From Phenylobacterium sp. RIFCSPHIGHO2_01_FULL_69_31 (lineage in GTDB: Bacteria; Pseudomonadota; Alphaproteobacteria; Caulobacterales; Caulobacteraceae), in NCBI RefSeq assembly GCF_001824475.1, contig NZ_MHXN01000011.1, positions 7,918-71,917 on the forward strand: DNA of 64,000 nt. Direction: 5' to 3'. The translations under genes and the position numbers were made by a program. Below, one piece after another: positions 21,294-29,756 of this stretch (positions are counted from its first letter, which is position 1; the number at the start of each line of letters is the position of its first letter). The notes below the pieces were generated by a model. The model was not told the origin of the DNA and searched no databases. It was given only the letters and a program-made list of their open reading frames with translations.

Positions 21294-21725
21294 ATGATCC
21301 GCTACGCCCTCACCTGCGACCATGACCACGAGTTCGAGGGCTGGTTCGGCTCGTCTACCGACTTCGACGACCAGCAGGGCCGTGGCCTTCTGGAATGCCC
21401 CCTGTGCGCCTCGAAGGCCGTGCGCAAGCAGATCATGGCGCCCGCCGTGGCCGGCACGAAGCGCACCATGCGCGAGGAACTGCCCGCCAAGGCCCAGGCG
21501 ATGATGATGGAGGCCGCCGGCCGCATCCGCCGGCACGTGGAAGAGAACTTCGACGACGTGGGCGACGCCTTCGCCTCGGAAGCCAGGGCGATCCACGAGG
21601 GGCGGGCCGAGGATCGCGGCATCTACGGCCAGGCGACACCCAAAGAGGTCCGCGACCTGATGGAGGACGGCGTGCCCGTCGCGCCCCTGCCGCCCGAGCC
21701 GCTGAAGAAGTCCGAGGTCAACTAA
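21294..21725 (+). CDS. DUF1178 family protein
   Basis: MIRYAL.C...HEFEGWF.SS.DFD.Q...LLECP.C...V.K.IMAP, FA.EARAIH.G, IYG.AT..E...L.EDG. Confidence 0.92.
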   Translation: MIRYALTCDHDHEFEGWFGSSTDFDDQQGRGLLECPLCASKAVRKQIMAPAVAGTKRTMREELPAKAQAMMMEAAGRIRRHVEENFDDVGDAFASEARAIHEGRAEDRGIYGQATPKEVRDLMEDGVPVAPLPPEPLKKSEVN

Positions 21726-21772
21726 CGCGCGCTTGCGGCGCGCCCGGCCGCTTGGCAATCTCGGATTGCATC
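21726..21772 (+). repeat. 47-bp exact direct repeat, copy 1, upstream of S9 peptidase 1
   Basis: CGCGCGCTTGCGGCGCGCCCGGCCGCTTGGCAATCTCGGATTGCATC, identical to 23715..23761. Confidence 0.95.
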
Positions 21773-21789
21773 AGGTGGGGGCCTGTCCA

Positions 21790-23712
21790 GTGATCCGTTT
21801 TCCGCGTTTCGTTGTCGCGCTTGCGCTGGCGGCGACCTTTGCGTCCTGGACGGCGGCTGCAGCTCCGCTCTCCGCCTACGGCAAGCTGCCCACCATCGAG
21901 GCCGCGTCGGTCTCACCCAGCGGCCATGCGGTGGCCCTGGTCCTGACCGACGGCGAGGATCGGCTGATCGTGGTCCAGGACCTGGCCAGCAAACAGATGA
22001 CGCTTCGCGCCGGCACCGGCCGGGCCAAGGTGCGCCACGTGCGGTGGGCGGGCGATGGCCACCTCCTGATCATCACCACCGTGACCGCCAATCCGATGGA
22101 CGTCCGGACGACACAGCGCGAGTGGGCCATGGGTTTCAGCATGGACCTGAAGACCAAGAAGGTCCTGCCGCTGCTGCGCGACGCCGAATACGCGATGAAC
22201 ACGATCTACGGCCTGCCCGTCGTGCGGACCTACAACGGCGAGCCGACGGTCTTCGTCCAGGGCATCAAGTTCGTGAACAACGAGGGGCGCGTCTCGCTCT
22301 TCCGCATCGACCTGGATCGGGCCAGCAGCCGCATCGTCGAGGTGGGCGGTCCCGACACCCGGGACTGGGTGGTCGGCGTGGACGGCGAGCCGGTGGCGCA
22401 GGAACTCTACGACTTCAGGACGGGCCGGTGGGCGATCAAGCTGAGGGCCGGCAACGGCAGTTGGCGGGAGGCCCTCGGGGTGATGGCGCCGCTCGACCCA
22501 CCCTCGATGATGGGCCTCGGGCCGGACGGCAAGTCCGTCCTGTACGAGACGATCGACGGCGAGAAACTGGTCTGGAAGGAAGCGCGTTTCGACGATGCGC
22601 CGGCAGCGGCGCCGGTGCCCGTCTCGGGCAGCCAGGGCGCGCTCTACGATCCGCAGGACGGCCGCCTTTCTGGCCACTATGCCCTGGTGGGCGAGCAGGG
22701 CCGCTATACGTTCCTGAACCCCCAGGACCAGCGGATCTGGAAGGCCGTCACGGCGGCGTTTCCGGGCGCGATCGTCTCGCTGCAGTCGTGGTCCGGCGAC
22801 CGCAAGAAGATCGTCGTCCGCGTGGATTCGCCCGACGAGGGGCCGGCTTACGCCCTGGTGGACCTGAACACCCGCCAGGCGACGTGGCTGGGGCCCGAGT
22901 ACATGGGCGTCAAGGCGGCGGATGTGGCGCGCCAGACGCCGATCCGGTTCAAGGCCCGCGACGGGCTGGAACTCACCGGCTATCTGACCGTGCCCAAGGG
23001 GCGCGAGGCGCAACGCCTGCCGCTGATCGTCTTCCCGCACGGCGGTCCGGCCTCCCGGGACACGCCCGGCTTCGACTGGTGGGCCCAGGGCATGGCTTCG
23101 CGCGGCTACGCCGTGCTGCAAGTGAACTTCCGAGGCTCCGAGGGCCTGGGCGACGCCCTGCTCGAAGCCGGCTATGGCCAGTGGGGTCGCAAGATGCAGA
23201 CCGACCTTTCGGACGGCGTCCACTACCTCGCCGCCGAGGGGCGGATCGATCCGAAGCGCGTCTGCATCGTGGGCGCCAGCTACGGCGGCTATGCCGCCCT
23301 CGCCGGGGCGGCCCTGGACACCGGCGTCTACCGCTGCGCCGCCTCCTTCGGCGGCCTGTCGGACCTCGGACGGTTCGTATCCTGGTCGAGGGCGAAGCGC
23401 GGCCCGTCCGCCTTCCGCTACTGGACCCGCTTCATGGGGGCCGAGGAGGATCGCAAGGTCCTGGCCGAGATTTCGCCTGCAGCCCACGTCGACAAGGTGA
23501 CGATCCCGGTCCTGCTCATCCACGGCAAGGACGACAGCGTGGTTCCGCTGGAGCAGAGCCAGATCATGGCCGACGCGCTCCGCGGGGCGGGCAAGCCCGT
23601 CGAGCTGGTCGTCCAGAAGGGCGAGGACCACTGGCTCTCCCGCGGCGAGACGCGCCTGCAGACCCTCGAGACCACCATGGCCTTCATCGAGAAGCACAAC
23701 CCGCCGGATTAG
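21790..23712 (+). CDS. Secreted S9 family (prolyl oligopeptidase / acylaminoacyl peptidase-like) peptidase, catalytic triad intact
   Basis: GTG start and signal peptide. PHGGP, GASYGG (Ser at 23278), HGKDDSVV (Asp), EDHWLS (His at 23629). Confidence 0.93.
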   Translation: MIRFPRFVVALALAATFASWTAAAAPLSAYGKLPTIEAASVSPSGHAVALVLTDGEDRLIVVQDLASKQMTLRAGTGRAKVRHVRWAGDGHLLIITTVTANPMDVRTTQREWAMGFSMDLKTKKVLPLLRDAEYAMNTIYGLPVVRTYNGEPTVFVQGIKFVNNEGRVSLFRIDLDRASSRIVEVGGPDTRDWVVGVDGEPVAQELYDFRTGRWAIKLRAGNGSWREALGVMAPLDPPSMMGLGPDGKSVLYETIDGEKLVWKEARFDDAPAAAPVPVSGSQGALYDPQDGRLSGHYALVGEQGRYTFLNPQDQRIWKAVTAAFPGAIVSLQSWSGDRKKIVVRVDSPDEGPAYALVDLNTRQATWLGPEYMGVKAADVARQTPIRFKARDGLELTGYLTVPKGREAQRLPLIVFPHGGPASRDTPGFDWWAQGMASRGYAVLQVNFRGSEGLGDALLEAGYGQWGRKMQTDLSDGVHYLAAEGRIDPKRVCIVGASYGGYAALAGAALDTGVYRCAASFGGLSDLGRFVSWSRAKRGPSAFRYWTRFMGAEEDRKVLAEISPAAHVDKVTIPVLLIHGKDDSVVPLEQSQIMADALRGAGKPVELVVQKGEDHWLSRGETRLQTLETTMAFIEKHNPPD

Positions 23713-23714
23713 CG

Positions 23715-23761
23715 CGCGCGCTTGCGGCGCGCCCGGCCGCTTGGCAATCTCGGATTGCATC
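23715..23761 (+). repeat. 47-bp exact direct repeat, copy 2, upstream of the S9 paralogue
   Basis: Identical to 21726..21772. Confidence 0.95.
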
Positions 23762-23781
23762 GCGTGGGGCCTGTCGAAGTC

Positions 23782-25686
23782 ATGAGTATCAAGCGTTTCG
23801 CCGTCGCCCTGGCGCTCGCGTGGGGGCTGGCGGGGGCCGTGCAGGCTGCGCCGCTGGAGGCCTATGGCCGGCTGCCGGCCATCGACGCGGCCACGCTGTC
23901 GCCGAGCGGCGGCCAACTGGCGGTGATCGTGACCGACGGCGAGCGGCGCTCCGTCGCGGTCCAGGACCTGGCGACGAAGGCGGCCAAGGCGAGGGTGGAC
24001 TTCGGCGAAGTGCCTCTGGGCGGGGTCCGCTGGGTGGGGGAGCGGCACCTGCTGATCTACACCAGCGTCGAGTTCGACCCCGGCGACGTCACGGGTGGAA
24101 CGCGAAGCTGGCTTCGGGCCCACCTTCTCGATGTGGAGTCCTCGAAGCTGACGCCGCTGATGTCCGATGCCGCGGTGGGCATGAACAACATCGTTTTCGC
24201 CCCCATGGTTCGCACAGTCGGCGGCCGGCCGGCTGTCTTTCTGCAGGCCATCGAGTTCGTGAACCGCCGTGGCTACGTGGGTCTATTCCAAGTCGATCTC
24301 GCGACGGGCCGGGCCCGGGTGATCGAGCCGGCCGACGAGGGGATCCGGCGCTGGCTCGTGGATGTCGACGGCCGTCCCATCGCCCACGAGCGTTACCTGC
24401 CCAAGTCGGAGCGGTCGGAGCTTAGGATCAAGGACGGCAAGGGCTGGCGGGTCGTTCATTCGGCGGAGGGTTTCGCCGCCCGCGCTCGGATCCTCGGACT
24501 GGGGCGCGACGGACGGTCGGTGATCTATGCGGTCGGCGATCCGGCGACCGGAACGACATGGAACGAGGCCCGCACGGACGGGGCCCCGCCGGCGCCCCCG
24601 GTAGCGGTTCCTGCGCACCAGGTCCCGCTGAGCGACCCCTACGAAGGGCGGCTGCTGGGGCATTGGCAGCTGGACGGCGACGTGGACCGGGTGACCTACC
24701 TCGACCCGGCCGACCAGAAGGTCATCGACACCGTCACCTCGTCCTTCCGGGCGCTCACGGTCGAGATGAAGTCGTGGTCGCAGGATCGGCGGAAGGTGGT
24801 GGCCTGGGTCGACCAGCCGGGTGAGAGCCCGGCTTTTGCGCTCCTGGACCTCAAGGAGGGCACGTCGGCCTGGATCGCCTCGACCTACCCCGGCCTCACG
24901 CCTGCGGACATCGGTCCCAAGAGCCGGGTGCGGTTCAAGGCGGCCGACGGTCTCGATCTCGTGGGCTACCTGACCCGGCCGCCCGGGACGTCCCAGGCCA
25001 AGGCCCTGCCGCTGGTGGTGCTTGCGCACGACGGGCCGGCGGACCGTGACACGGCGAACTTCGACTGGTGGTCGCAGGCGCTGGCGTCCCGCGGGTATGC
25101 GGTCCTGCAGGTCAACTATCGCGGCTCCTCTGGACTTGGCGGGGCGCTGCGAACGGCCGGCGACAGGGAATGGGGGCGGAAGATGCAGACCGACCTGTCC
25201 GACGGCGTAAAGTCGCTGGCCAACGGCGGTCTGGTCGATCCGAAGCGGGTATGCGTCGTCGGCAAGGGGTTCGGGGGCTACATGGCCTTGGCCGGGGCGA
25301 CCATGGAGCCGGAGGTCTACCGCTGCGCGGTGTCGGTCGGCGGCATATCGGACCTGCGCAGGCAGGACTCCTACGCCAAGGCCGACAACGCCTCGGCCTG
25401 GCGGGGACTGGGCGAGGTGAAGGACGTCGAGGCCCTGGCGCGCTACTCGCCGATACAACACGCCGGCGACGCCCAGGCCGCGGTGCTGCTTATCCACCTG
25501 AAGGACGATGCGGCGGTTCCGGTCTCGCAGACCCGCGACATGGCGGCGGCGCTGCGCGCGGCCGGAAAGCCGGTGGAGGTCGTGGAACTGCCGGGGCAGG
25601 ACCGCTGGATGGCGCGGGCGGATACGCGGCTCGGAATGCTGACCGCGACGGTGAACTTCCTGGAGAAACACAACCCGCCGAATTGA
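23782..25686 (+). CDS. Secreted S9 peptidase paralogue lacking catalytic Ser and His (putative pseudo-enzyme)
   Basis: Collinear with the upstream peptidase, but GASYGG becomes GKGFGG, EDHW becomes QDRW and HGGP becomes HDGP. The reading frame is intact and full length. Confidence 0.88.
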
Positions 25687-25730: not shown

Positions 25731-25795
25731 GGGGTGGCCGGCGACCGTGCTTCTGTGGAGGCGGCCGCCGCGTTCCGCCTACCGAGGGGACCCGA

Positions 25796-28381
<2,586 letters not shown>

Positions 28382-29695: not shown

Positions 29696-29756
29696 CAGCT
29701 TCGAATGCCACGCTTCGGCCTAGCCGACGAGAGTCCCGCCGTGCTAAAGCGCAGGC

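Follow-up and report, generated by a model that had tools for sequence, protein, structure and literature searches.

Why does a bacterium keep, directly beside the gene for an active exported peptidase, a full-length relative that has lost the residues of catalysis? The question is raised by a 64-kb window of Phenylobacterium sp. RIFCSPHIGHO2_01_FULL_69_31 DNA (the whole 64,000-nucleotide stretch of contig NZ_MHXN01000011.1 that was analysed), in which two consecutive genes, copy 1 and copy 2, encode homologues of peptidase family S9. Copy 2, the downstream gene, shows no decay. It is one of an old clade of S9 homologues without a working active site (here called the dead clade) and is kept intact by purifying selection. 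It is a lineage-restricted bacterial pseudoenzyme, an addition to a known theme. The answer that we favour is that copy 2 is probably an exported two-domain pseudo-peptidase, long kept for a non-catalytic job.

The C-terminal α/β-hydrolase domain of both proteins matches the Pfam family Peptidase_S9 (PF00326) with scores far above the cut-off of 22.6 (154.9 bits for copy 1 and 132.8 bits for copy 2), and the two sequences align end to end at 48% amino acid identity, down to C-termini that read EKHNPPD and EKHNPPN, respectively. An active S9 peptidase is recognised by the pattern GxSxGG...D...H and an HGGP motif. Copy 1 has all four elements in frame: HGGP at 23038–23049, Ser497 (AGC, 23278) within GASYGG, Asp581 (GAC, 23530) and His614 (CAC, 23629). 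Copy 2 retains only the catalytic Asp of these (Asp575, GAC, 25504). Its HGGP reads HDGP (25027–25038, with the Asp codon at 25030), the nucleophile is replaced by Gly496 (GGG, 25267) within GKGFGG, and Arg608 (CGC, 25603) takes the place of the His. Because the nucleophile and the general base are missing and the oxyanion-loop motif is changed, copy 2 is predicted to be incapable of serine-protease chemistry. Both N-termini, read by eye without a predictor, resemble Sec signals, with basic residues, a hydrophobic stretch and an A-x-A motif ahead of a shared mature start, APL.AYG. The G+C content is 0.692 in copy 1 and 0.699 in copy 2, and that of third codon positions (GC3) 0.908 and 0.877. 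The original prediction, made from the letters of the DNA, had described two collinear secreted S9 proteins of about 640 residues ending in EKHNPP, a full Ser-Asp-His triad in copy 1, the changes of Ser to Gly, His to Arg and HGGP to HDGP in copy 2, and a signal peptide, full length, an open frame and normal codon usage in the latter; all of this is borne out. Translation likely starts at GTG 21790 in copy 1 and at ATG 23782 in copy 2. Longer TTG-initiated open reading frames (ORFs) were rejected, as their extra part merely translates a conserved non-coding element described below.

The AlphaFold2 model of copy 2, built with 120 homologues, has a mean predicted local distance difference test score of 91.1 and a predicted template modelling score of 0.90. 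Residues 34–400 are all-β and form the β-propeller, which is followed by the α/β-hydrolase part. The least confident part of the model comprises residues 531–550, around which copy 2 carries a 5-residue deletion relative to copy 1. The propeller of copy 1 is placed by its end-to-end alignment with copy 2. In a Foldseek search, the full-length model matches S9C-type peptidases with template modelling (TM) scores of ~0.7 (TMq 0.65–0.73) at 16–21% identity, and a phmmer search of the PDB with the catalytic domain finds the same S9C-type families with E values of 2e-23 to 1e-14. The best matches in both sequence and fold are acylaminoacyl peptidases (PDB ids: 1VE6, 2HU8, 5L8S), puromycin hydrolases (7C72, 3AZO) and S9 carboxypeptidases (8WT1, 5YZN). 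Apart from their low identity, these enzymes differ from copy 2 in that all are active and most are cytoplasmic. The best NCBIfam model for both copies is that of the AtxE2 lasso-peptide isopeptidases (NF033523), which are S9 enzymes of Caulobacterales and Sphingomonadales, yet neither copy is a member of this family, with scores of 86.3 and 60.2 bits against a cut-off of 400. By their hydrolase domain and propeller, copy 1 and copy 2 are homologues of peptidase family S9.

Copy 2 has many relatives in the same state. Among the best 120 homologues, 101 carry both Ser and His, and about 20 combine HD.. in place of HGGP with a loss of the Ser, mostly to Gly. There are about 20 dead-clade protein clusters, found only in Phenylobacterium-type genomes and metagenomes, and all are of full length and free of frameshifts; the clade takes in relatives of copy 2 with identities as low as ~50%. 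In a neighbour-joining tree of 172 sequences the dead clade is a single one with 28 tips. Ser or His is missing from 27 of them, HGGP and the catalytic Asp from the 28th. It is recovered in 100 of 100 bootstrap replicates without the basal sequence P0103 and in 48 of 100 with it. A profile of the dead clade gives its own 20 clusters 903–1069 bits, compared to 887 bits for the best active protein, and an exhaustive search of 1.84 billion representatives returned three dead-clade clusters at the 50% identity level (959–994 bits), with the next match at 721 bits. The dead clade is rare among species-representative genomes: a scan of a genome collection found 79 loci, nearly all with active copies, and only one, L070 (see below), without Ser. 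The clade is old, has a single origin and is nested within an active S9 family whose members form tandem arrays of one to three copies between DUF1178 and clpB. Measured from their common node in the tree, the path to the dead clade is 0.64 substitutions per site and that to its active sister 0.33, an evolutionary rate roughly twice that of the active enzymes.

The ratios of nonsynonymous to synonymous substitution rates (dN/dS or ω; pairwise Nei–Gojobori estimates) between copy 2 and its three closest orthologues are 0.131, 0.175 and 0.156, with codon-bootstrap confidence intervals within 0.08–0.23. They are alike in the propeller and hydrolase halves (0.17 in the hydrolase domain), and the YN00 method gives 0.063 for one pair. 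For comparison, copy 1 and its orthologue in the related contig L001 are 99.2% identical, with a dN/dS of 0.039. Since dead-clade members are only 47–58% identical to each other and saturated at synonymous sites, yet have intact ORFs without exception and an ω of ~0.15, the clade has been under long-term selection. The original prediction of selection rather than decay is therefore upheld, and the state that would have spoken for recent decay, namely orthologues that normally retain Ser and His or carry frameshifts, is not seen in the dead clade. Copy 2 shows two marks of a pseudoenzyme: its catalytic residues are missing, and its intact orthologues are under purifying selection.

The active site appears to have degenerated in stages. 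The change of HGGP to HD.. is common to nearly all dead-clade members and that of Ser to Gly to most, as would be expected of orthologues carrying the same substitutions as copy 2; the other two triad positions are less uniform. The His is kept in the early branches (P0103, P0004, P0005, P0006 and P0021) and is Arg, Asp, Trp, Thr, Lys or Leu elsewhere, Arg being the commonest but not a universal replacement. The Asp, which copy 2 retains, is Gly, Lys, Asn, Leu, Met or Gln in most other members. Because HD.. and Gly are widely shared but Asp and His were lost piecemeal, this distribution agrees with an active site that was knocked out early, after which constraint on the remaining triad residues was relaxed. 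A column-by-column comparison of conservation between 20 dead and 99 active sequences extends the pattern beyond the triad. Residues of the catalytic domain that are invariant in the active set and have lost constraint in the dead clade include Trp436, Trp470, Asp530, Tyr549, Trp550, Phe553, Val589, Val590, Trp620, Gly624 and Thr626; in the propeller, constraint is lost at the likewise invariant Lys85, Arg87, Glu116, Arg177 and Trp322 (these residue numbers are those of P0033). Conversely, Asp99, Arg111, Arg112, His114, Arg190, Arg382, Arg399 and Asp417 are 80–95% conserved in the dead clade and nearly absent from active proteins. Asp417 is the Asp of HDGP, and this change of Gly to Asp is 90% conserved within the clade. 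The mean column entropy of the dead clade is no higher than that of the active set in the propeller and about doubled in the C-terminal catalytic parts. Because residues that are invariant in the active enzymes have been lost, the idea that copy 2 binds the same peptides as its active relatives seems weakened.

A different kind of divergence is seen between close strains. From 17.8 to 31.3 kb, the window and L001 are ~98% identical at the DNA level, except for the body of copy 2, where a tract of ~83% identity has sharp edges, one ~100 nt inside the coding sequence and the other at the stop codon. The proteins are 99% (copy 1) and 86% (copy 2) identical, and dS in copy 2 is 0.44 (ω 0.175), compared to ~0.09 in copy 1 and clpB. 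The copy 2 allele of the window is closer to that of L087 (94% nucleotide identity), although L087 is a more distant strain by its clpB (93%) and copy 1 (88%). Metagenomes in which several related strains co-occur were compared by their long contigs only. In run X4, copy 1 has 1 mismatch in 1653 nt and pieces of copy 2 are ~14% different; in run X8, the differences are 0.8% and 4.5%. The contigs L004 and L006 present an extreme case, in which ClpB is 99% identical, the neighbouring active S9 protein 85%, and the dead copies, which come from different subclades, 47%. The phylogenetic incongruence of the window, L001 and L087 indicates that dead-gene alleles are swapped by recombination, apparently independently of their neighbours. 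Active genes of the array are likewise far more divergent than its flanks, so that the S9 array as a whole forms an island of variability, with conserved genes, DUF1178 and clpB, on either side. Gene conversion between copy 1 and copy 2 was considered and rejected, for their coding DNA is uniformly ~60% identical, and ~50% at third positions.

The sole long exact match between the copy 1 and copy 2 regions is a 47-nt element upstream of each gene, which in both places begins just past the stop codon of the preceding gene. The element in front of copy 1 consists of a −35-like TTGCGG (21733–21738), a 17-nt spacer, a −10-like CAATCT (21756–21761) and a perfect palindrome, GCAATC-TCG-GATTGC (21755–21769), after which comes a ribosome-binding-like run, GGTGGGGG. 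In front of copy 2, TTGCGG is found at 23722–23727, CAATCT at 23745–23750 and the palindrome at 23744–23758. In fifteen upstream regions of relatives, an invariant CTTG(C) is followed, after a spacer that varies in sequence but not in length, by an invariant GGCAAT.T...ATTG(C) and then a G-rich ribosome-binding-like run; within the second hexamer, A at position 2 and T at position 6 are invariant. Because of this conservation pattern, which is the sole basis for the reading, we infer that the element is a cassette promoter with an overlapping operator. An Escherichia coli-type promoter scanner did not call it. An RNA element such as a riboswitch or leader is not supported, since folding was no better than that of shuffled sequences (z −0.3 and +0.3) and no Rfam match was found at E values up to 1. 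A sigma-54 promoter (TGGCA..TTGCA) was rejected, as its GG-to-GC spacing is, by reading, two bases over the consensus.

In most relatives, the element precedes the first S9 gene only, and later S9 genes follow at distances of 7–40 nt. Among multi-gene arrays, those of the window, L001 and L087 are the only ones whose dead gene has an element to itself. L013 carries one before each of two active genes, and in L088 and L091 the element stands directly in front of a lone dead gene. The palindrome has no additional copies in the window. Exact 19-mer matches number 17 in metagenome contigs; only four of them, those within a CTTGCGG context, precede S9 genes, and the others look like chance. A wider regulon finds no support: the element was not found before non-S9 genes in the window or the metagenome contigs. 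Features of the locus are listed in Table 1.

Table 1. Features of the S9 array and its borders in the window (starts of copy 1 and copy 2 are the likely ones)
Feature	Position	Strand	Basis or remark
DUF1178 gene	21294..21725	+	Conserved left border of the S9 array
Upstream element A	21726..21772	+	One arm of the 47-nt exact repeat, before copy 1
Copy 1, exported S9 peptidase, 640 aa	21790..23712	+	ORF, Pfam, intact catalytic motifs
Upstream element B	23715..23761	+	Other arm of the 47-nt exact repeat, directly before copy 2
Copy 2, exported full-length S9 homologue without catalytic triad, 634 aa	23782..25686	+	ORF, Pfam, motif reading, AlphaFold2 model
Divergent-allele tract	23880..25681	+	Body of copy 2, compared to L001
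clpB	25793..28381	+	Conserved right border of the S9 array; no other S9 gene comes between it and the dead copy

Taken together, these results can be accommodated by the following scenario. Copy 2 would have arisen by tandem duplication of an active S9 gene, and its protein would still fold and be exported to the periplasm. A cassette promoter/operator of its own may switch it on alongside the active gene. Its periplasmic role would be that of a binder or scaffold whose remodelled cavity takes a ligand other than the substrate of the enzyme. It would not be an obligate subunit of its neighbour, but act alone or loosely associated.

The gene neighbourhoods bear on the last step. The dead gene is the last S9 gene in all 13 distinct contexts (the window, L001, L087, L002/3, L005, L006, L089, L090, L004, L007, the P0015 contig, L088 and L091). 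In the last two of these, no other S9 gene lies between DUF1178 and clpB; these contigs are short, and paralogues elsewhere in the genomes are possible. Several points weigh against a stand-alone pseudo-peptidase. An active copy lies immediately upstream of the dead gene in 11 of the 13 contexts. S9C-type peptidases with solved structures are homo-dimers to hexamers, which keeps a hetero-oligomer plausible. The trees are neighbour-joining only, and dN/dS was estimated pairwise by the Nei–Gojobori method at ~90% GC3. A binding or scaffolding role is the default assumption for pseudoenzymes and as such would be a guess by analogy. In favour of it, exact matches to both S9 genes in short contigs of RNA-type libraries (runs X25–X28, window positions 21618–24373), a soil metatranscriptome included, one of which runs from the DUF1178 end across the upstream element into copy 1, hint weakly that both genes are transcribed, although they could be DNA carry-over. 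The upstream active copies and the homo-oligomeric relatives would suit a prozyme-type partner, that is, a copy 2 that hetero-oligomerises with the upstream active S9 protein and tunes its activity, stability or substrate access. So would the constant last place of the dead gene, the same promoter/operator-like element and export signal of both genes, and the purifying selection to which the dead copy's hydrolase domain is still subject; there are known cases in which a dead paralogue activates its active partner (PMC5201418, PMC10211241). Such a partner is nevertheless rather unlikely. The dead gene is alone at its locus in L088 and L091, its neighbour in L002 is an S9 gene of a different paralogue type (60% identity, GGSYGG), and P0170, another relative without Ser, is encoded by itself in unrelated surroundings. 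Furthermore, the identities of neighbour and dead copy are uncoupled, at 99% versus 86% between the window and L001 and 85% versus 47% between L004 and L006. Because of the lone dead genes in L088 and L091 and this uncoupled divergence, an obligate hetero-oligomer is weakened and would rank below a stand-alone non-catalytic role.

The remaining explanations are weaker still. Copy 2 could be a decoy or sponge that soaks up an inhibitor, toxin or peptide which targets the active enzyme or is destroyed by it, with an arms race generating the allelic diversity. The 5–8-fold higher divergence of copy 2 relative to its flanks between near-identical strains, the shuffling of its alleles among strains, the variability of the entire S9 array compared to DUF1178 and clpB, and a best NCBIfam model from the lasso-peptide isopeptidases of related alphaproteobacteria all lend this idea some appeal. 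It is improbable nonetheless: synonymous sites are equally over-divergent and ω is ~0.15, which points to recombination and not to positive selection, the isopeptidase scores are far under the cut-off, and the loss of cavity residues that are invariant in active proteins would make copy 2 a poor mimic for a ligand directed at the active site. Those same losses bear on a second alternative, a rewired enzyme that is still catalytic via other residues, e.g. Asp417 of HDGP. Pseudoenzymes with migrated catalytic residues are known (PMC10211241), the Asp of HDGP is strongly conserved in the dead clade, and the change that creates it recurs together with that of Ser to Gly in other Ser-less relatives that retain Asp and His. 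In copy 2, however, the His is Arg, most dead-clade members have also lost the Asp and/or the His, and many more residues of the active-site shell are without constraint, so that residual catalysis is very unlikely. A recently inactivated duplicate in which frameshifts are yet to come would have three active-site changes and evolve faster than its active paralogues, as copy 2 does. Such a neutral relic is scarcely credible and, short of errors in the ORF and dN/dS analyses, refuted by the intact ORFs of a clade at 47–58% identity with saturated dS, by ω values of 0.13–0.18 with an upper confidence limit of 0.23, and by the conserved residues that the dead clade has of its own.

Loss of the nucleophile is also found outside the dead clade. 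The nearest 141 other full-length representatives at the 50% identity level (among P0138–P0281) include 22 without Ser. Half of these (11) carry HDGP together with GxG(Y/F/L/V)GG, and most retain Asp and His. They are scattered in a neighbour-joining tree, and the difference between their dead-clade and active-clade model scores is at most +1 bit, compared to +246 bits for copy 2. Because the dead-clade model scores them no better, they do not belong to the Phenylobacterium dead clade. P0170 (L109, 7001–8884), which is among them, has its nearest relative at 49% identity and is encoded between infC and rpmI-rplT-pheST, without an S9 neighbour. A truncated contig of Phenylobacterium sp. SMAG_U1457 (L070, 1–2003) contains a second kind of tandem pair, in which the partial upstream gene is active (ASYGG...) and the downstream one has HPGP and GEDYGG; in the latter, Ser is changed to Asp, and its closest relatives are active proteins and not dead-clade members. 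Nucleophile loss appears to be recurrent in this family, often through the same two single-transition changes. It is a long shot that HDGP with GxG(Y/F)GG marks a recurrent, selected re-tooling of the S9 pocket in Caulobacterales-like exported proteins, which would convert a peptidase into a periplasmic protein that acts as receptor for, or sequesters, a specific ligand, such as a peptide natural product cleaved by the active paralogues; allele swapping would then be a diversifying exchange of ligand specificities. Another member of the wider family, P0165, is 1351 residues long, which is double the normal length, and has two separate stretches that match the profile, perhaps because two tandem S9 units are fused in it or because two genes were merged in the gene call.

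The closest likeness to the active site of copy 2 is found in animals. DPP10 reads GKGYGG, with Ser replaced by Gly, and DPP6 has Asp at this position; both are channel subunits (PMC4350108). Like copy 2, they are S9 propeller/hydrolase proteins without the nucleophile, and their role, as subunits of Kv4 channels, is non-catalytic. The DPP10 motif resembles GKGFGG of copy 2 and is matched by GKGYGG in the dead-clade proteins P0011 and P0014, while the GEDYGG of L070 has the Asp of DPP6. DPP6 and DPP10 are, however, type II membrane glycoproteins of the S9B subfamily that keep His and Asp, whereas copy 2 is a soluble exported bacterial protein with an S9C-like fold. Its signal, read from the sequence, is of the cleavable type without an anchor, its matches to DPP4-like chains are far weaker than those to S9C-type structures (E ~1e-8 to 1e-14), and its host is a bacterium. 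Copy 2 is thus no DPP6/DPP10-type protein, and the likeness of GKGYGG to DPP10 is convergence, not relatedness.

The nearest bacterial parallel is the Csp system of Clostridioides difficile, in which the pseudoproteases CspA and CspC occur with the active CspB, and in which restoration of the triad does not restore activity (PMC7200643). Here again, a bacterial locus holds an active serine protease and dead paralogues, which in the Csp system are required and under selection. The Csp proteins differ in being subtilisin-like (S8) spore proteins of a Firmicute, with a defined role in germinant sensing, whereas copy 2 is an S9 protein whose pairing is probably not obligate. The paradigm for a hetero-oligomer is the AdoMetDC prozyme of Trypanosoma brucei, a dead paralogue that regulates the active enzyme (PMC5201418); its fold and organism are unrelated, and the obligate heterodimer it forms is unlike what the evidence on copy 2 suggests. 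As a class, pseudoenzymes can regulate allosterically, serve as scaffolds, compete or trap substrates (PMC10211241). Inactive homologues go unmentioned in a recent survey of S9 proteins in bacteria (10.1101/2024.09.22.614393), and the literature searches made for this analysis found no account of a dead S9 lineage from bacteria.

Eukaryotic pseudoenzymes are well documented, the S9 proteins DPP6 and DPP10 included, but few bacterial pseudo-proteases have been characterised. The array described here offers a natural test system, with an active enzyme, an old and selected dead sister, the same element before both, and genomes with zero, one or two active partners; the further Ser-less relatives with the same two substitutions add to its value. 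If a function were found, it would show how a propeller/hydrolase shell can be used without catalysis. The case also calls for caution in annotation, as all database names encountered for dead-clade proteins ('S9 family peptidase', 'dipeptidyl aminopeptidase/acylaminoacyl peptidase') imply an activity that these proteins cannot have.

The surroundings of the array are conserved. Its gene order (a methyltransferase gene on the opposite strand, a comF-like gene, genes for a glutaredoxin, a C-N hydrolase and DUF1178, the S9 array and clpB) is seen again, from methyltransferase to clpB, in Phenylobacterium-type contigs, where the array consists of one, two or three genes. S9 homologues of Caulobacter, Brevundimonas and sphingomonads are sited elsewhere, away from the DUF1178/clpB locus. 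Nearly all named relatives of the copy 1 and copy 2 proteins in the homologue search are from Phenylobacterium or other Caulobacterales, and the public runs that contain window DNA are groundwater, soil and rock metagenomes. The G+C content of the window is ~70%. Two overlapping ORFs of 736 and 793 residues cross the S9 genes in other frames (21913–24123 on the minus strand and 22044–24425 on the plus strand); they were rejected as genes, their Arg/Gly/Pro-rich translations being a chance product at 70% G+C. The alignment of L001 stops past ~31300, probably at the end of the L001 sequence and not at the end of homology. Upstream of this point, L001 has ~280 additional bases at window position 29697, within surrounding DNA that is 98–100% identical.

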